In this document: in pieces, positions 12,145-64,000 of the stretch
How the letters are laid out: each line of letters starts with the position of its first letter
Position numbering within the stretch: position 1 is the first letter of the stretch
Assembly (NCBI GenBank): GCA_000004985.1
Contig: GG738858.1
Length of the DNA: 64,000 nt
From: Naegleria gruberi
Lineage: Eukaryota
Strand: one strand, 5' to 3'
The notes under the pieces: model-generated
What the model was told of the DNA's origin: nothing
Seen by the model: the letters and a program-made list of their open reading frames with translations, nothing else
The model's database searches: none
Position numbers and translations under genes: made by a program

Positions 12145-14137
12145 ATGTCTAATAATCAACACGATCCTTCCACAAGCAACATTGAAAATCAAACCAAAGA
12201 CCCACTCCAACATGAAGTTGCATCAACACAACAACCCAGTGTGAGCACGAGTTTAAACTCTCAAAGAAGAGAAACAGAACAGTTGGAAGTCATGCAATTC
12301 TTAGAGATGGAAGATGTCCTCTCAAAGATGGATAAACAAATAGAATTCAACCACTCAACTCTACCTCAGCAGCAACAGCAAACATTTAACAACACTTCAT
12401 CGCAAAATAATTCACACAGACATAGTAAAACAGTTCAACAACAAGAAAACCAAACAACAATACCCATTCAGAAAGGTAGAAAAAAGGAATTTGTAATATC
12501 AACCAGGTGTGGACAGATTCAATTGACTTTCGAGAGGGTACTTTCGTTTTTAATAATGATTCTCACCATATCCATACTATTAGTAATGAGCATTCTTTCC
12601 ACTGGTATTGTAAGTTTCCAGAAAGCGTTTACGCCAAAAGTTAACTTCAAGTCAAGTCGTCTAAAGTCATTTTAAGTCGAAAAAAAAAGTCAATTTACTG
12701 GCAACAAAATCGATTCAAAGTCGATTCACAGACAACTGGCAATCAACTACAATCGATTCAAAGTCGATCCAATTCTTGTTTTAATTGCTTGCACTGCAGT
12801 GGAACTATTATCAAATAGACTTCTAAAGAACTTGGAGAGAAATAAAGGCTAAAGTAAGAAGAATTGACACCAAATTATGCAAATATATCAAAAGAAAATA
12901 AATTGAGTTAATTCTTCTTTCAACTGCAGGTTGGTGTTAGTTGATTTGGGGATCAATCAAAAGTCGTCTGTTTTTAACGTCATCCAAAATCAAGTCAGGT
13001 CGCACCAAGTCGATCAAAAAAGTTAATTTTTTGCGTAAACGCTTTCTGGAAACTTACAATACTATAGTAATCCAATCCAAGACAGAGGATACTTGCTATC
13101 AACATGTTGCTTCATTACTGGTCAACTTGAACGATATCAAAGTTAGTTTTGATATCATGCTAGGCAGTTCACTTTCAAAACAACGATTACTTTCTGAGGT
13201 TAACAGTACAATGAAAGTGGTGAGCAAAGAATTGGATGCTCTGATATTGGACATTCCATCGTACAATAAGGTCAATAACTTATCTAGAGAATCAATCATA
13301 CCAATGCTGAGGAAGAATTTCAATGATTTTCAAACTGTTCAAACCATAATGTTCAATAATGTTGTGAATAATGTTAAAGATTTCAACTTTTACAAGTTCA
13401 ATTACCTTACTCAACTGCAAATACTTGTTAATAGCTTGGGAGATCCATTAATTATTGCTGATAGAGCTGCGTATAATGAAGATGTGTACATGAATTATAG
13501 TGCCGGTGTTAATTTAATTCTAGTTTCGATTACATTACTAATCATTGTTCCAGTAATGGTAATTGTTTTAATTATTACTATTGGAAGAGATAATTTATTT
13601 ATGGATAAGTTGAAAAAAGCAGATGCACATGTTATTATAGAGGTAATGGAAGATGATCGCTTACATATTTTATTTAAGGAATTCTGCAAACTAAATAATC
13701 AATATTCTAAAGTTCTATTTTTGGAGAAGGTAATGTTGTACAAGGAACAATGTGAGAAAGTTTATGATTTGCATGATCAAATCGAATCTCTATCAGATGT
13801 TTCAGGAGGTGAAGCTAGTAAAAGTCTCAGCCATGAGGTTGACATTTTGGAAGCAAAGAAATTCGAATTGGCATTCGAAATCATAACTGAATTCCTTGAT
13901 AATGACAGTGAATCATTCTTGGGAGTGAAATTACTAGGTGGTAAAAGAGATATTGAAAAAGTTAAAAAGACTTTTGATGAAAAATCAATGAATTTACCAG
14001 ACAAACTTTTCAAATCACTCCAAACTAATGTCGCAGTTTACTTGTTACAAACCCACAAACTATTCCAAGCTCAACAACGGAGAAATAGAGAAGAACGTAA
14101 AAAGAATCGTCTGCTAAAACTTCAAAAACACAAATAA
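12145..14137 (+). CDS. Q/N-rich multi-pass membrane protein with an RGS-like C-terminal region. The coding sequence is interrupted at 12607..13060 by a MITE, and possible splicing is 12145..12609 + 13082..14137.
   Basis: ORF 12145..12675 starts at a true ATG and reads into the inserted element. ORF 12941..14137 has no ATG near its 5' end and starts inside the element. Deleting the element (12607..13060) fuses the two in frame (...ILSTG|TIVIQSKTEDTCYQ...). The downstream part has two TM segments and a stretch (FKEFCKLNNQYSKVLFLEKVMLYKEQCEK...LEAKKFELAFEII) that is RGS-domain-like. Confidence 0.45.
12607..13060. mobile_element. 454-bp MITE-like non-autonomous DNA transposon with 30-bp perfect TIRs (about 40 bp imperfect), possible TA target-site duplication and internal sub-terminal direct repeats; inserted in a coding sequence.
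   Basis: The sequence GTATTGTAAGTTTCCAGAAAGCGTTTACGC at 12605..12634 is the exact reverse complement of 13033..13062. A further 12 bp match at 10/12. Internally, AATCGATTCAAAGTCGAT occurs twice and AAGTCGTC sits near both ends. The element is flanked by TA on both sides (ggTA|ttgtaag ... cttacaa|TAct). It has no coding capacity. Confidence 0.7.
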
Positions 14138-45351: not shown

Positions 45352-47433
45352 TTATTGACTACCAGTCTTGGCAAAATCATTAAAACCACCCAATAAAGAA
45401 TCAGGAATAAATTCATAAGTTGAAATCTTTTCAGCCATTTCAATTAAATCAAAAGCAATATCTTGTGTAATGACACTATCTTTTTGATAATTTTGATGAT
45501 TTCTAATAAATTGTCTAATAAAAGCAGCATTAGTTTGTAATTTACCACTTGCTCTCAAACTAACTAAATTTAAATATCTTTCCAATTTAATTCTATCATT
45601 AACTTCAACATGCATTTGATCAAGATATTTTCTAACAAGAGGAATTAATCCAATAAATTTCTTATCTTGTTCTTGAACACCATTCATAATTTCATTAATT
45701 GTTAATTCCTTTGTACATTTAGAAAAAGTTTCAGATGAAATTTTAGAATTCAAATCAGAATCTAAACAAGTTCTAAATGAAAACTTTTGATTCAATACAG
45801 CATCTCTTAAATGTGCCTTTTTCATATTTTCATCAACTTGTGAAAGTGGCATTAACATGTTCAATTTGAATGATAAAATAGCACGTGTTAATAAAACAAT
45901 AAAAACTGTAAATGCAGCATTTTCAAAATCAGTTAATTGAACTTCCATAACTCTAAATTCAACTCTCCATCCAATTGATGAATTTGGACCTGGAGGTGGT
46001 TTAAATCTAACAGTTTGCCAATTGGTTGATTGTAAATTTTCAAAATGAACAGATTCATTTTCATCATCAACTTGTTTACAATCAGTAAATATAACAAGTG
46101 GATCACGTATAAAGTAATGTGCAATATGTCTTGATAATTGTTCATCAATATTATTTTCACGTAAAGTATTATATGATTGTTCATCAATTTCAATTTCCAA
46201 ATCACTAAATTGTTTTGCTTGTTCATTTTCACCAATATATAAACTAATTGAATCATATCTACTTTTAGAAATTGTATTATTTTCTTCATCTCTTCTATCA
46301 TCAACACTTGCACTAACAATATTCCATCGTACATCTGTATCTGCTAATAATCCACGTGCCATTGGTGTTGCTGCTGTGAGTGCTAACATTATTGGACATA
46401 AAACTGCCATTTGATCATATAAATTACGTGCTTCATGAATATCACGTGCTAATAATGTACTTTGCATACAACAACATCCCATTCCAAATGCCATTGCATC
46501 CATATGAATAAAATGTTCAAAATCTGTTATCAATCTTTGTGCATATGAAGATGAAAGTACTTGTTCCTTCTTTTGTTGAATAATTTCATCAATATTTGGA
46601 TATAAATTTGTTAGAGTTGATGAACTAGTTGTTGAAGAAGATGTAATATTATCCAAATGATGAACTTGTTTACCAATATTAACATTAGTATTTTCATCAA
46701 TATATAATGGTACTAGAATGTTAACATTTTTACCTCTTCTCAATCTGATATTTCTAGTTAGAGTACCAAATCTTGGATGTTCATTTGTAATAATATCTGG
46801 AATGTATGGTGATCTTGCAATTGGTCCATTAAAAGTTAACATTTCATTACTTTCATCATCACTTAATGGTAAAATATCACCAATCTTATTAAATTGACTC
46901 TTATTAATATCACTATTCAATACTTTACTTGTTGCACCTAATAATGGAAATAAAGACATTGTAATAACAGAATTTGTAACATTTGGTGATTTGAATTGTT
47001 GTAAAATCTTTGGAACAATTGATTGTGCAATCATTCTTCTTTTTTGCATTGATTCTTCACATTTCAAATAACAAGAAATACATCCTTCATATGGAAAGAA
47101 AGGTGTACCTTCTAACATAAATCTACCATATTCTGGTTTCCAACTTGCTAATGGTGCTTGTGTTATCAATTTTGAATTAAAATCTTCTTCTTCTTTCATT
47201 AAAACATCTAATACTTGTTTAGCATGTAATGATAAATAAACTTGACGTGATTCGGAATCTTTTTCTAACAATAAATATTCAATTTCATCTCCCCATTTCA
47301 ATTCTTTATCAGTTCTATCTTTTACCTTGTTATAAATTATTATAAATTGTTTAATACCATGTTCTTTTACATAGTCAATTAATGAAAGTGCATCAGTCCA
47401 CTTGAGTGGTGTACCTGCTTTTAATAATCCCAT
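45352..47433 (-). CDS. gclc: Glutamate-cysteine ligase catalytic subunit (gamma-glutamylcysteine synthetase), single exon.
   Basis: The 693-aa ORF reads MGLLKAGTPLKWTDALSLIDYVKEHGIKQF...KWGDEIEYLLL...GCCCMQSTLLARDI...WQTVRFKPPPG...GWRVEFRVMEVQLTDFENAAF and is colinear with human GCLC. Confidence 0.9.
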   Translation of the reverse strand: MGLLKAGTPLKWTDALSLIDYVKEHGIKQFIIIYNKVKDRTDKELKWGDEIEYLLLEKDSESRQVYLSLHAKQVLDVLMKEEEDFNSKLITQAPLASWKPEYGRFMLEGTPFFPYEGCISCYLKCEESMQKRRMIAQSIVPKILQQFKSPNVTNSVITMSLFPLLGATSKVLNSDINKSQFNKIGDILPLSDDESNEMLTFNGPIARSPYIPDIITNEHPRFGTLTRNIRLRRGKNVNILVPLYIDENTNVNIGKQVHHLDNITSSSTTSSSTLTNLYPNIDEIIQQKKEQVLSSSYAQRLITDFEHFIHMDAMAFGMGCCCMQSTLLARDIHEARNLYDQMAVLCPIMLALTAATPMARGLLADTDVRWNIVSASVDDRRDEENNTISKSRYDSISLYIGENEQAKQFSDLEIEIDEQSYNTLRENNIDEQLSRHIAHYFIRDPLVIFTDCKQVDDENESVHFENLQSTNWQTVRFKPPPGPNSSIGWRVEFRVMEVQLTDFENAAFTVFIVLLTRAILSFKLNMLMPLSQVDENMKKAHLRDAVLNQKFSFRTCLDSDLNSKISSETFSKCTKELTINEIMNGVQEQDKKFIGLIPLVRKYLDQMHVEVNDRIKLERYLNLVSLRASGKLQTNAAFIRQFIRNHQNYQKDSVITQDIAFDLIEMAEKISTYEFIPDSLLGGFNDFAKTGSQ

Positions 47434-47909: not shown

Positions 47910-50597
47910 TTATTGGTAATAATTCATACAGAATGAAAATTGATTGAGAGCAATAAGACCTGGAAATCTGATTACACTGCACACGCTATTAATCTTTGAA
48001 AGAGGAATTACTGAAGTGGCAACTGAGTGAATGAATAGTTTGTACATTAATGATACATAACACAACTCTCCAAGCGTAAAAATTTCATCACAACAAACAA
48101 CATTATCCCCTAATTGAGATATCTTCCCAATAAATCTATCGAATTGAATATACATTCCAACCTTAAGTGATGATTTTCTAGCAACATCAAGTGTTTTACC
48201 AACTAATCGTCTTGTAAATGGATAATCTGCAAATAATGTATTCATTCCAACTTCATGTTGCAACCCTCTAACTTCAAGTAATTTGTTATTACTTCTATCA
48301 TTAAATTGTTTGAATTCAGAATGTTTCAATTCAAAAATCAACGCCCAAAACCATGTAACATCCCCAAAAAGTACACAATCTTCAAAAATGTGCGTTGCCC
48401 AATGATAATTCGGAAATTGGCAATTATCTTTGCCAAAACAATATGTAAAAATGGATTGAAATTTTGTAAATACTTTTTCACAATACACAATATCATCATG
48501 AGTATAATTCCCCCTTAATAACCTTATAAAATATTGTAAGTGAAGAATCCATCCTTGATAGAGTAATCCTTTTTTAGAAGAATCTATTTTCAACTTTTGA
48601 TTATTATTGTAAATTAATTCACAAATAATAGGAGCACTCATAATAATAAAATCTAACATTGAAATACCTGAAAGAGTGTCAATATCCATTCTTAATTCAA
48701 GCTTTTTTCCATTTGGAAGAGTATACTTTGTTGATATTTCAATTAAATCATCCATAGCAGTCGCATATTCTAATGCTTGTACAAGTAATTTGAGATGTTT
48801 TCGAAATAATCCTTGAATTTCTAAATGAAAGAAATCAACTACAGATCTACGATACGGATCTATCATTATTTGAGTAACAAATCTTGATTTGATGAATGTT
48901 TTGACAATTAATTGATTCATCAATTGTTTTCTTTTGTTTGTTGACATTTGCTTACTTTTGAATCTCTCCTCTTCCCAAGTTTGTTCTTTTACACCTTTCC
49001 TTGCAATTCTATTTTGTTTAGAATCTGCAATTTTAGGTAATTCTGATAATTTCTCAACAATATCTTTCATTTCTGAATGTTCTCTCCTTTTAAATGTGTG
49101 TACACATGTTGGATTAAACGCGGATGCACCCATTAAATCTGTTGGTGTTTTGTCAAGGTTGTCTGACGCATCTAAACATCTGGAACATTCATTTTTCATA
49201 AGTGCTAAACATTTCAATCTTTCAGGTGTATCTAATAAAAATCCCATACAGCAAATGAATAGCTTAATATCTTCTCCTGTAGTTGGATGTTTCACTGTAA
49301 TGATTTTACCATCATGATTTTCAAAATCTTGAATAATTGAATCAGTCATTTTCCAAAATCCTTCATTACTCCATGAAAAACCGTTTACACGAATTGCGCT
49401 TAAACTTGACATGAAATCTGAATCAAAATTGTAACTTGTGAAATAGGAGGCGCATGTTGACTTGGTTTTTGTTCTGAATTTAGCAAAATCATCAAAATAT
49501 TCTAAAACTAGAAATGGAAATGCATCTTCAGGGCATTTAGCAAGGTATTCACCAAATATTTTTGAAAAGTAAGGTTGATTTTCTTTCTTTTGTATATTCT
49601 TTTTTTCAAAATATTCTTTTCGTGTTAAGCACATGTGTTTTGTGATTGCTTGATCTTTCAACAACAATTTCAAATTATTCTCAAATGAAATTGCTGCAAA
49701 TCCATCCTCTTGTTTGTATTCAAAATTGATCATTGCTTTTTTCCTTTCGAGTAATGTATCGTAACAAGGAATTTCGTTAAAAGTTGATTCAGGGACCATG
49801 TATTTGAACATATCTCTAAGGAAATCGTACCCACTTTTACACAATTTGAAATGATTAACCAAAATATAACAGTATATTTCTTCTTTTGATTGAAATACAC
49901 CCTTTCCATTCACATCTTTTAAAATTTCACACCCCAAATCATATGGTAGCTCTTTAAAAACAAAATTTCCAATTTTTTCACATTTTACATCCGATTCTTT
50001 GTGAAATATTTCTGAAACTGGAAAATAAAGAGTGTCAATTATTGAAAAGGGAGTTTCAATTGTATTAGCAAATCCGAAAATACTACCTTCAGCTAAAACT
50101 TGTTGTGAGTGAATTCCGTTTTGTTTTAGCTTCTTCTGTTGCGATTCGTATTCAGTCAGCTTTGGTAATCTACTGTCTTTAGATTTTAGCAAATGTGTAC
50201 AATGTGAATTAATAATGTGAGTGTAACAATTTTCACTGTTCATGATAAAATTACAACAATTAAATCTTGATACAGTATCTATCTTTGCAAGAGAACAATT
50301 TCCCTTAGAACATCTATTAAGATGCTTTTTTAATAAATCTCCCTTTGTAAATGTTTGACAACAAAAAGGACAGACCCAGCGTTTTGTTTGACAATCACGA
50401 CATGAAGAACATAAACTTAAATCAAATGAAGATTTTGCACATTCATACACATAGTACTCTTCCTCTTTTTGACATTTATCGCATTTTGTTGCTTTTGTGA
50501 GAAAATCAAGGGATACATTGTTACCAGGTTTTTGTGTAATCATTTTTTTAGCATTGTAAACCATATGAAATTCTACCAAATAGTGGTTATTTTTCAA
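47910..50597 (-). CDS. Transposase of the Tnp2/KDZ family (CACTA/EnSpm superfamily) with an N-terminal Cys-rich zinc-chelating region and a C-terminal DUF4218-like domain; appears intact.
   Basis: This is an 895-aa uninterrupted ORF. N-terminal Cys clusters read CDKCQK...CSSCRDC...CPFCC...H..C. The Tnp2 core motif is IKLFICCMGFLLDTPERLKCLALMKNECSRCL (cf. the LLAC.CD.PA....N.K.FNG.YGC..C pattern). The C-terminal DUF4218-like motif is NYHWATHIFEDCVLFGDVTWFWALIFELKH. The first codon is TTG and the first ATG is 11 codons in. Confidence 0.6.
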   Translation of the reverse strand: MKNNHYLVEFHMVYNAKKMITQKPGNNVSLDFLTKATKCDKCQKEEEYYVYECAKSSFDLSLCSSCRDCQTKRWVCPFCCQTFTKGDLLKKHLNRCSKGNCSLAKIDTVSRFNCCNFIMNSENCYTHIINSHCTHLLKSKDSRLPKLTEYESQQKKLKQNGIHSQQVLAEGSIFGFANTIETPFSIIDTLYFPVSEIFHKESDVKCEKIGNFVFKELPYDLGCEILKDVNGKGVFQSKEEIYCYILVNHFKLCKSGYDFLRDMFKYMVPESTFNEIPCYDTLLERKKAMINFEYKQEDGFAAISFENNLKLLLKDQAITKHMCLTRKEYFEKKNIQKKENQPYFSKIFGEYLAKCPEDAFPFLVLEYFDDFAKFRTKTKSTCASYFTSYNFDSDFMSSLSAIRVNGFSWSNEGFWKMTDSIIQDFENHDGKIITVKHPTTGEDIKLFICCMGFLLDTPERLKCLALMKNECSRCLDASDNLDKTPTDLMGASAFNPTCVHTFKRREHSEMKDIVEKLSELPKIADSKQNRIARKGVKEQTWEEERFKSKQMSTNKRKQLMNQLIVKTFIKSRFVTQIMIDPYRRSVVDFFHLEIQGLFRKHLKLLVQALEYATAMDDLIEISTKYTLPNGKKLELRMDIDTLSGISMLDFIIMSAPIICELIYNNNQKLKIDSSKKGLLYQGWILHLQYFIRLLRGNYTHDDIVYCEKVFTKFQSIFTYCFGKDNCQFPNYHWATHIFEDCVLFGDVTWFWALIFELKHSEFKQFNDRSNNKLLEVRGLQHEVGMNTLFADYPFTRRLVGKTLDVARKSSLKVGMYIQFDRFIGKISQLGDNVVCCDEIFTLGELCYVSLMYKLFIHSVATSVIPLSKINSVCSVIRFPGLIALNQFSFCMNYYQ

Positions 50598-59836: not shown

Positions 59837-59888
59837 AANNNNNNNNNNNNNNNNNNNNNNNNNNNNNNNNNNNNNNNNNNNNNNNNNN
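59837..59888. other. Assembly gap (N run).
   Basis: 52 consecutive n characters. Confidence 0.99.
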
Positions 59889-60919: not shown

Positions 60920-63900
60920 NNNNNNNNNNNNNNNNNNNNNNNNNNNNNNNNNNNNNNNNNNNNNNNNNNNNNNNNNNNNNNNNNNNNNNNNNNNNNNNNN
61001 NNNNNNNNNNNNNNNNNNNNNNNNNNNNNNNNNNNNNNNNNNNNNNNNNNNNNNNNNNNNNNNNNNNNNNNNNNNNNNNNNNNNNNNNNNNNNNNNNNNN
61101 NNNNNNNNNNNNNNNNNNNNNNNNNNNNNNNNNNNNNNNNNNNNNNNNNNNNNNNNNNNNNNNNNNNNNNNNNNNNNNNNNNNNNNNNNNNNNNNNNNNN
61201 NNNNNNNNNNNNNNNNNNNNNNNNNNNNNNNNNNNNNNNNNNNNNNNNNNNNNNNNNNNNNNNNNNNNNNNNNNNNNNNNNNNNNNNNNNNNNNNNNNNN
61301 NNNNNNNNNNNNNNNNNNNNNNNNNNNNNNNNNNNNNNNNNNNNNNNNNNNNNNNNNNNNNNNNNNNNNNNNNNNNNNNNNNNNNNNNNNNNNNNNNNNN
61401 NNNNNNNNNNNNNNNNNNNNNNNNNNNNNNNNNNNNNNNNNNNNNNNNNNNNNNNNNNNNNNNNNNNNNNNNNNNNNNNNNNNNNNNNNNNNNNNNNNNN
61501 NNNNNNNNNNNNNNNNNNNNNNNNNNNNNNNNNNNNNNNNNNNNNNNNNNNNNNNNNNNNNNNNNNNNNNNNNNNNNNNNNNNNNNNNNNNNNNNNNNNN
61601 NNNNNNNNNNNNNNNNNNNNNNNNNNNNNNNNNNNNNNNNNNNNNNNNNNNNNNNNNNNNNNNNNNNNNNNNNNNNNNNNNNNNNNNNNNNNNNNNNNNN
61701 NNNNNNNNNNNNNNNNNNNNNNNNNNNNNNNNNNNNNNNNNNNNNNNNNNNNNNNNNNNNNNNNNNNNNNNNNNNNNNNNNNNNNNNNNNNNNNNNNNNN
61801 NNNNNNNNNNNNNNNNNNNNNNNNNNNNNNNNNNNNNNNNNNNNNNNNNNNNNNNNNNNNNNNNNNNNNNNNNNNNNNNNNNNNNNNNNNNNNNNNNNNN
61901 NNNNNNNNNNNNNNNNNNNNNNNNNNNNNNNNNNNNNNNNNNNNNNNNNNNNNNNNNNNNNNNNNNNNNNNNNNNNNNNNNNNNNNNNNNNNNNNNNNNN
62001 NNNNNNNNNNNNNNNNNNNNNNNNNNNNNNNNNNNNNNNNNNNNNNNNNNNNNNNNNNNNNNNNNNNNNNNNNNNNNNNNNNNNNNNNNNNNNNNNNNNN
62101 NNNNNNNNNNNNNNNNNNNNNNNNNNNNNNNNNNNNNNNNNNNNNNNNNNNNNNNNNNNNNNNNNNNNNNNNNNNNNNNNNNNNNNNNNNNNNNNNNNNN
62201 NNNNNNNNNNNNNNNNNNNNNNNNNNNNNNNNNNNNNNNNNNNNNNNNNNNNNNNNNNNNNNNNNNNNNNNNNNNNNNNNNNNNNNNNNNNNNNNNNNNN
62301 NNNNNNNNNNNNNNNNNNNNNNNNNNNNNNNNNNNNNNNNNNNNNNNNNNNNNNNNNNNNNNNNNNNNNNNNNNNNNNNNNNNNNNNNNNNNNNNNNNNN
62401 NNNNNNNNNNNNNNNNNNNNNNNNNNNNNNNNNNNNNNNNNNNNNNNNNNNNNNNNNNNNNNNNNNNNNNNNNNNNNNNNNNNNNNNNNNNNNNNNNNNN
62501 NNNNNNNNNNNNNNNNNNNNNNNNNNNNNNNNNNNNNNNNNNNNNNNNNNNNNNNNNNNNNNNNNNNNNNNNNNNNNNNNNNNNNNNNNNNNNNNNNNNN
62601 NNNNNNNNNNNNNNNNNNNNNNNNNNNNNNNNNNNNNNNNNNNNNNNNNNNNNNNNNNNNNNNNNNNNNNNNNNNNNNNNNNNNNNNNNNNNNNNNNNNN
62701 NNNNNNNNNNNNNNNNNNNNNNNNNNNNNNNNNNNNNNNNNNNNNNNNNNNNNNNNNNNNNNNNNNNNNNNNNNNNNNNNNNNNNNNNNNNNNNNNNNNN
62801 NNNNNNNNNNNNNNNNNNNNNNNNNNNNNNNNNNNNNNNNNNNNNNNNNNNNNNNNNNNNNNNNNNNNNNNNNNNNNNNNNNNNNNNNNNNNNNNNNNNN
62901 NNNNNNNNNNNNNNNNNNNNNNNNNNNNNNNNNNNNNNNNNNNNNNNNNNNNNNNNNNNNNNNNNNNNNNNNNNNNNNNNNNNNNNNNNNNNNNNNNNNN
63001 NNNNNNNNNNNNNNNNNNNNNNNNNNNNNNNNNNNNNNNNNNNNNNNNNNNNNNNNNNNNNNNNNNNNNNNNNNNNNNNNNNNNNNNNNNNNNNNNNNNN
63101 NNNNNNNNNNNNNNNNNNNNNNNNNNNNNNNNNNNNNNNNNNNNNNNNNNNNNNNNNNNNNNNNNNNNNNNNNNNNNNNNNNNNNNNNNNNNNNNNNNNN
63201 NNNNNNNNNNNNNNNNNNNNNNNNNNNNNNNNNNNNNNNNNNNNNNNNNNNNNNNNNNNNNNNNNNNNNNNNNNNNNNNNNNNNNNNNNNNNNNNNNNNN
63301 NNNNNNNNNNNNNNNNNNNNNNNNNNNNNNNNNNNNNNNNNNNNNNNNNNNNNNNNNNNNNNNNNNNNNNNNNNNNNNNNNNNNNNNNNNNNNNNNNNNN
63401 NNNNNNNNNNNNNNNNNNNNNNNNNNNNNNNNNNNNNNNNNNNNNNNNNNNNNNNNNNNNNNNNNNNNNNNNNNNNNNNNNNNNNNNNNNNNNNNNNNNN
63501 NNNNNNNNNNNNNNNNNNNNNNNNNNNNNNNNNNNNNNNNNNNNNNNNNNNNNNNNNNNNNNNNNNNNNNNNNNNNNNNNNNNNNNNNNNNNNNNNNNNN
63601 NNNNNNNNNNNNNNNNNNNNNNNNNNNNNNNNNNNNNNNNNNNNNNNNNNNNNNNNNNNNNNNNNNNNNNNNNNNNNNNNNNNNNNNNNNNNNNNNNNNN
63701 NNNNNNNNNNNNNNNNNNNNNNNNNNNNNNNNNNNNNNNNNNNNNNNNNNNNNNNNNNNNNNNNNNNNNNNNNNNNNNNNNNNNNNNNNNNNNNNNNNNN
63801 NNNNNNNNNNNNNNNNNNNNNNNNNNNNNNNNNNNNNNNNNNNNNNNNNNNNNNNNNNNNNNNNNNNNNNNNNNNNNNNNNNNNNNNNNNNNNNNNNNNN

Positions 63901-64000
63901 NNNNNNNNNNNNNNNNNNNNNNNNNNNNNNNNNNNNNNNNNNNNNNNNNNNNNNNNNNNNNNNNNNNNNNNNNNNNNNNNNNNNNNNNNNNNNNNNNNNN
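60920..64000. other. Assembly gap or scaffold end (N run).
   Basis: An uninterrupted run of n to the end of the window. Confidence 0.99.

Follow-up and report, generated by a model that had tools for sequence, protein, structure and literature searches.

We describe a small non-autonomous DNA transposon that interrupts the coding sequence of NAEGRDRAFT_65487, a gene of Naegleria gruberi NEG-M located in a 64,000-nt window of contig GG738858.1 (assembly GCA_000004985.1), of which approximately 61 kb of real sequence (positions 1-60919) were analysed. The element has the anatomy of a miniature inverted-repeat transposable element (MITE) and lies in a coding exon, directly after the first transmembrane helix of the encoded protein. 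Its insertion breaks the open reading frame (ORF), and removal of the element together with one TA dinucleotide restores this frame exactly. Each of its inverted repeats begins with the consensus splice donor GTAAGT, raising the question of whether the element acts as an intron, as the initial annotation of this DNA had suggested. We hold with moderate confidence that it represents a recent disruptive insertion into a redundant paralogue, and that the resulting allele is likely null or weak.

The 5' coding part of the gene (12145..12606, + strand) comprises codons 1-154 and includes the motif TRCGQIQL and transmembrane helix 1 (residues 132-150), while the 3' coding part (13062..14137, + strand) encodes a loop, transmembrane helix 2, an RGS-like domain and the stop codon. 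Deletion of positions 12607-13060, i.e. the element and one TA, produces an uninterrupted ORF of 512 codons (...ILSTG/TIVIQSKTEDTCYQ...), in agreement with the in-frame fusion proposed in the initial annotation. In this fused ORF the motif is found at residue 120 and the two transmembrane helices at residues 132-150 and 307-325. The predicted empty-site junction reads CACTGGTACTATAGTAATCC (shorter form ...CACTGGTACTATAG...). With the element retained, translation would proceed to the first in-frame stop at 12673..12675 (+ strand), giving a read-through product of 176 amino acids. The fused ORF has a single database protein match, XP_002679231.1 (EFC46487.1), the public, genome-predicted protein of NAEGRDRAFT_65487, which is located on a 782,252-bp scaffold.

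Homologues were gathered exhaustively with HMMER, for which only the 3' ORF served as query. The search returned 62 proteins, among them the N. gruberi paralogues NAEGRDRAFT_66407, 66405 and 66402, a Willaertia magna protein and proteins from metagenomes. In an alignment of six homologues (alignment A1) the insertion point is passed without a gap of more than one residue, and the stretch RKKEFVISTRCGQIQLTFERVLSFLIMILTISILLVMSILSTG/TIVIQSK is aligned with QDQQYIINTKYGQLQLSCDRIISVLIMLLAIITLFMMAFLSACTLILETN and others. Across 39 homologues a common layout recurs, in which the TxCGxxEL motif precedes transmembrane helix 1, a loop of roughly 170 residues separates this helix from helix 2, and an RGS-like domain follows. 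The fused ORF displays each of these features, i.e. the motif, both helices, the loop and the C-terminal RGS-like domain. The Pfam RGS match is weak in the host protein (E = 0.005) and is found in 4 of 7 aligned members, with a best value of 1.9e-8. For one homologue, two independent metagenome contigs carry the coding sequence as a single uninterrupted ORF of 1,497 nt.

Because the homologues cross the insertion point without a larger gap and retain both the motif and helix 1, the two ORFs are one gene, as had been proposed initially. The initial annotation had also called for a comparison with homologues; in the six aligned proteins and in the wider family both halves are present as one continuous protein across the junction and not as two unrelated genes. 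Judged from these relatives, the insertion point carries no ancestral intron, and the ancestral product of NAEGRDRAFT_65487 has 512 amino acids. The family of two-transmembrane RGS-domain proteins with the TxCGxxEL motif ahead of helix 1 is large and apparently heterolobosean. The paralogues NAEGRDRAFT_66402, 66405 and 66407 have closely spaced locus numbers and are all located on one 502-kb scaffold.

The public protein XP_002679231.1 has only 466 residues and reads ...IPIQK/VIQSK... across the affected region. It implies an 'intron' at 12476..13067 (+ strand, 592 nt), which removes the element together with 46 upstream and 2 downstream codons. The TxCGxxEL motif and helix 1, both present in the fused ORF, are absent from this model, and the 46 missing residues are conserved in the six aligned homologues. 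Comparison with the family thus shows the annotated intron to be a work-around of the transposon by the gene predictor; the motif and helix 1 are missing because the predictor spliced around the element.

The element itself is delimited by two inverted repeat arms at 12605-12647 and 13020-13062, which are 43 nt long and show 95% complementarity, with the outer 30 nt perfect. The insertion reads ...CACTGG TA / TTGTAAGTTTCC...GGAAACTTACAA / TA CTATAG..., and, with the element ends bracketed strictly, CACTGG-TA-(TTGTAAGT...ACTTACAA)-TA-CTATAG. The element proper thus spans 12608..13059 (452 bp, no assigned strand, 33.6% GC) and contains stop codons in all six frames. Its left terminal inverted repeat (TIR; 12608..12647, + strand) starts with TTGTAAGTTTCC and is perfect over 27 nt and approximately 95% matched over 40 nt; the right TIR (13020..13059, - strand) ends with GGAAACTTACAA when read on the + strand. 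The window contains exactly two occurrences of the 27-nt TIR core TTGTAAGTTTCCAGAAAGCGTTTACGC, one per strand, while none is expected (100 shuffles). The flanking TA dinucleotides named in the initial annotation were found at 12606..12607 and 13060..13061 and form the target-site duplication on either side of the inverted repeat. The same annotation had described a perfect TIR of 30 bp and a length of 454 bp. The inverted repeat and the element are real; however, the 30 bp are made up of 27 nt of the element, the palindromic TA and one fortuitous G/C pair of the flanks, and 454 bp corresponds to the element plus one TA.

Inside the termini the element carries short repeats, as had also been noted before. 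The left sub-terminal cluster (12649..12765, + strand) contains seven copies of AAGTC(G), each providing an AG, and three further copies with the same orientation are found near the right end (12961..13011, + strand). All ten AAGTC copies of the element lie on the + strand, compared to about 0.3 expected from the window-wide rate, and the longer form AAGTCGA is present in four copies within the element and nowhere else in the 61 kb. The two arms are predicted to form an RNA stem of about 44 bp, with a minimum free energy of -143 kcal/mol and z = -10.6. No other element of this type is present in the window.

No match to any of 5.8 billion proteins was obtained with the six-frame peptides of the element even at E <= 10, so that none of the gene models in this collection has exonised a copy of it. 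Comparison with Rfam likewise returned no match, and a structured RNA family in the element was rejected on this basis. A transposase gene with matching ends is not present in the window. The combination of TIRs, a TA target-site duplication, small size and absence of a transposase supports classification of the element as a MITE of the TA-duplicating kind, in line with the label of a non-coding, MITE-like element given initially. It may be Tc1/mariner-like, an assignment whose sole basis is the TA duplication. With the Stowaway-type or Tc1/mariner-derived MITEs it shares its short length (452 bp), the lack of coding capacity, TIRs, the TA duplication and a strong hairpin potential. In contrast to these MITEs, where sub-terminal repeats are usually inverted, its AAGTC(G/A) repeats have the same orientation at both ends and do not follow the inversion of the termini, which is unusual for sub-terminal repeats that bind transposase.

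We then consider how transcripts of the interrupted gene may be spliced. In the left half of the window there are five clear short introns of 43-55 nt, all of which start with a GTAAGT donor and carry a yTnAy motif (TTTAC, CTAAT or TTAAT) 12-18 nt ahead of the 3' AG. Three longer, AT-rich introns of 80-160 nt are found in the AT-rich right half and use GTTAGT or GTATGT donors. The left repeat of the element harbours a GTAAGT at 12610..12615 (+ strand), and its context, ATT/GTAAGTTT, is identical to that of the donors of the short introns. For the left half of the window, the initial annotation was correct in calling this a canonical donor, and also in its estimate of the usual intron size.

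The significance of this hexamer was assessed by counting GTAAGT within every open frame of 150 codons or more in positions 1-60919 (39.9 kb of frame interior in total) and comparing the counts with 500 codon shufflings. GTAAGT is absent from the sense strand of these frames, while 8.0 +/- 2.7 occurrences are expected, and none of the 500 shuffles gave as low a count. As a control, the antisense count, i.e. of the reverse complement ACTTAC, is 9 compared to 9.9 expected. Most of the sense-strand GTAAGT sites of the window lie where an open frame ends. The pattern suggests that this hexamer is strongly selected against within N. gruberi exons, and we infer that the genome uses GTAAGT as a potent donor.

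The outcome of splicing from 12610 would depend on the acceptor. Several AGs within the element lie at short distance from the donor: those ending at 12640 (31-nt intron, TTTAC 9 nt upstream of the AG), 12651 (42 nt, TTTAC 20 nt upstream), 12656 (47 nt, TTAAC 12 nt and TTTAC 25 nt upstream) and 12666 (57 nt, TTAAC 22 nt upstream). Each of them leads to a stop codon, with predicted products of 162, 162, 208 and 157 amino acids, respectively. The AAGTC repeats furnish acceptors within the element at a genome-typical intron length, and use of any of the four AGs would keep most of the element in the mRNA. Past the element, the first AG (13066..13067, + strand, 458 nt from 12610) is also the acceptor of the public model; paired with the donor at 12610 it is out of frame and gives ...STGI-stop, with the stop at codon 156. 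The second AG (13080..13081, + strand), chosen in the initial annotation, gives a 472-nt intron that is in frame and a product of 506 amino acids, and the AG ending at 13087 (478 nt) is also in frame and would give 504 amino acids. These acceptors lie 11, 25 and 31 nt, respectively, downstream of a branch-point-like CTTAC (13053..13057, + strand), a yTnAy match that is the reverse complement of the donor and is located in the right arm. Thus, among the pairings with the donor at 12610, only those of 472 and 478 nt maintain the frame, while introns of 31, 42, 47, 57 and 458 nt lead to stops at 155-208 amino acids. The arithmetic given initially for 12610..13081 holds: the removal yields ...STGI/TEDT..., with the seven residues TIVIQSK lost and one Ile gained. 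By chance alone, however, any point would be expected to have an in-frame AG within about 20 nt.

Other in-frame pairings rely on weak donors, i.e. GTAGAA at 12476, GTATTG for 12605-13067 (463 nt) and GTTTCC for 12614-13067 (454 nt). Use of 12476..13067 (592 nt) or of 12605..13067, which would cost the protein only Gly-Thr-Ile, provides frame-keeping borders that differ from those discussed above. Both of these pairs employ the first AG after the branch-like CTTAC, and the former corresponds to XP_002679231.1. However, both donors deviate from GTAAGT, with which each of the five short introns in the window's left half begins, and each would need to outcompete a perfect GTAAGT located 5 or 134 nt away. 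The 592-nt version would furthermore delete the family motif and transmembrane helix 1, which are conserved in the homologues, and looks like the result of a predictor forcing an ORF. We consider splicing at these borders very improbable.

Introners are intron-generating transposons of Micromonas, Aureococcus, dinoflagellates and others, reportedly described by Huff, Zilberman and Roy in 2016. If the present element were of this type, it would be removed from 12610 to the in-frame AG at 13080-81, leaving a functional protein without TIVIQSK but with one additional Ile, and its family would create introns upon insertion. Several features fit such a role. The element resembles a DNA transposon with inverted repeats and a target duplication, it is located in a coding exon, and its putative 5' splice site matches the consensus and is a sequence that exons avoid. 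CTTAC is found 25 nt upstream of the AG, and removal of the 472-nt intron would keep the frame and spare helix 1. Because the repeats are symmetric, either orientation of insertion would offer a 5' donor and a 3' branch-like site. Among known introners there are families that bring a 5' site of their own and recruit the 3' site from the flanking exon, and families that change the neighbouring codons by addition or deletion (PMC9860276).

On the other hand, splicing to the nearest AG downstream of the branch-like site would not restore the reading frame, and three rival acceptors at 42-57 nt from the donor, i.e. at the typical intron length, all lead to stops. An intron of 472 nt would be about three times as long as the longest and 9-10 times as long as a typical intron of the window. 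Introners are defined by many near-identical spliced copies, whereas here one copy is known, from the DNA sequence alone. We did not find a second copy within the 61 kb by exact and 3-mismatch TIR searches, an inverted-repeat scan and sensitive BLASTN. Searches of metagenome, prokaryote-genome and viral collections, which do not include the N. gruberi genome, returned nothing for the 27- and 23-nt TIR patterns, and a 19-nt pattern gave six isolated chance matches without a partner arm in the same collections. The protein collection, as described above, contains no copy either.

A screen of annotated introns in 3,325 genomes scored Naegleria_gruberi_strain_NEG-M as negative (IE = 0; Gozashti et al. 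2022, PMC9860276, Suppl. Table 4), although the pipeline keeps families of as few as four introns (at least 4) whose similarity begins at the annotated borders. The NAEGRDRAFT_65487 locus would itself fail this filter because its annotated intron begins 132 nt upstream of the element. The negative result therefore weighs against a sizeable introner family and yet is not conclusive. Nothing specific on MITEs or introners of Naegleria emerged from searches of the literature. Taken together, we regard an introner-like intron, as put forward in the initial annotation, as unlikely and for the most part speculative. Rather less probable still is that the element belongs to an unnoticed Naegleria family of intron-generating MITEs, with the donor GTAAGT in one arm and the complementary branch-like CTTAC in the other, spliceable in either orientation via a nearby exonic AG; it would then be the first introner reported in Discoba, captured just after its insertion. 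RNA-seq data of N. gruberi are available under PRJEB23822 (PMC6142364).

A disruptive insertion accounts for these observations as follows. A small, non-autonomous cut-and-paste transposon that targets TA entered the gene's single coding exon. NAEGRDRAFT_65487 encodes a two-transmembrane RGS-domain protein and has many heterolobosean paralogues. The insertion is probably young, since the repeats are perfect over 27 nt, the TA duplication is intact and the two half-ORFs are undamaged. Transcripts are probably spliced in some way, because both inverted repeats open with the consensus donor GTAAGT, and mostly to acceptors that would leave a premature stop. Since most pairings, i.e. the 42-57-nt mini-introns and the 458-nt pairing, have this consequence, a null or weak allele is the most likely result. 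Such an allele may be tolerated via paralogues, several of which are present in N. gruberi itself, and/or via another haplotype. The element is thus probably not an established, cleanly spliced intron.

It is also conceivable that the insertion is confined to one haplotype or to the sequenced clone, with an intact allele supplying the function. This is compatible with a disruptive insertion, and the perfect repeats, intact duplication and undamaged half-ORFs would fit a very young event of this kind. In contrast, the fused 512-residue protein is not found in the collection of 5.8 billion proteins, and we give this possibility only a small chance.

A number of points weigh against a null or weak allele. 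Undamaged half-ORFs are also expected if the gene continues to function through splicing. As GTAAGT is avoided in sense frames, the donor at 12610 is probably engaged by the spliceosome. The CTTAC in the right arm appears to be a plausible branch site at a fitting distance from two AGs, one of which is in frame. Within the predicted stem of about 44 bp, the donor would be buried along with the branch-like site; this stem is nevertheless no bar to splicing, because introns of Hypoxylaceae with terminal inverted repeats of 45-55 nt are spliced (PMC8469720), and a long TIR hairpin was accordingly rejected as a decisive obstacle. These internally symmetrical (stw)introns resemble the present element in having terminal inverted repeats able to form double-stranded RNA. 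Unlike the element, they lack flanking duplications, are thought not to be mobile as DNA transposons, have proliferated and have been verified by RT-PCR (PMC8469720).

A further functional parallel is offered by other cut-and-paste elements in exons. Imprecise splicing of exon-inserted Tc1 in C. elegans was reportedly described by Rushforth and Anderson in 1996, and that of exon-inserted Ds/dSpm in maize is said to have been described by Wessler and by Purugganan and Wessler in 1992. In these systems, as here, a cut-and-paste element is located in an exon and provides cryptic splice sites at its ends, and most of the element may be spliced out of some transcripts, which would then encode a slightly altered, partly functional protein. 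The outcome was shown by cDNA analysis for Tc1 and Ds/dSpm, whereas for NAEGRDRAFT_65487 it is predicted.

Elsewhere in the window the base composition changes abruptly, and the GC content drops from about 33% to 23-28% at approximately 38000-60919. Genes in this AT-rich half contain poly-Asn or AAT-repeat tracts. An origin of the AT-rich half from another organism was considered and rejected, as the glutamate-cysteine ligase encoded at 45352-47433 (- strand) matches XP_002679361.1, a protein of the same scaffold, with 100% identity. The same half includes an open frame of 895 codons at 47910-50597 (- strand), the N-terminus of which is rich in Cys and contains CxxC pairs as well as a C2H2-like stretch. 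This frame has no Pfam match at E <= 0.01, and its product could be lineage-specific or transposon-derived. A scaffold gap of 50 N is located at 59839-59888, and N padding extends from 60920 to 64000, so that the sequence probably reaches the scaffold end.

In summary, the locus provides a clean, datable example of a MITE insertion in a coding exon of Naegleria gruberi. It also corrects the public gene model, as XP_002679231.1 is short of a conserved motif and a transmembrane helix. The avoidance of GTAAGT suggests unusually strict donor recognition in this organism, and any GTAAGT-bearing insertion would thus be a candidate splice substrate. Among the Naegleria genomes covered by a large screen, no introners were detected. 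If the element were removed from the RNA in frame and further copies were located in introns, this would extend transposon-driven intron gain to Discoba. It would also reveal a simple arrangement, where a single inverted repeat specifies the donor as well as the branch site.

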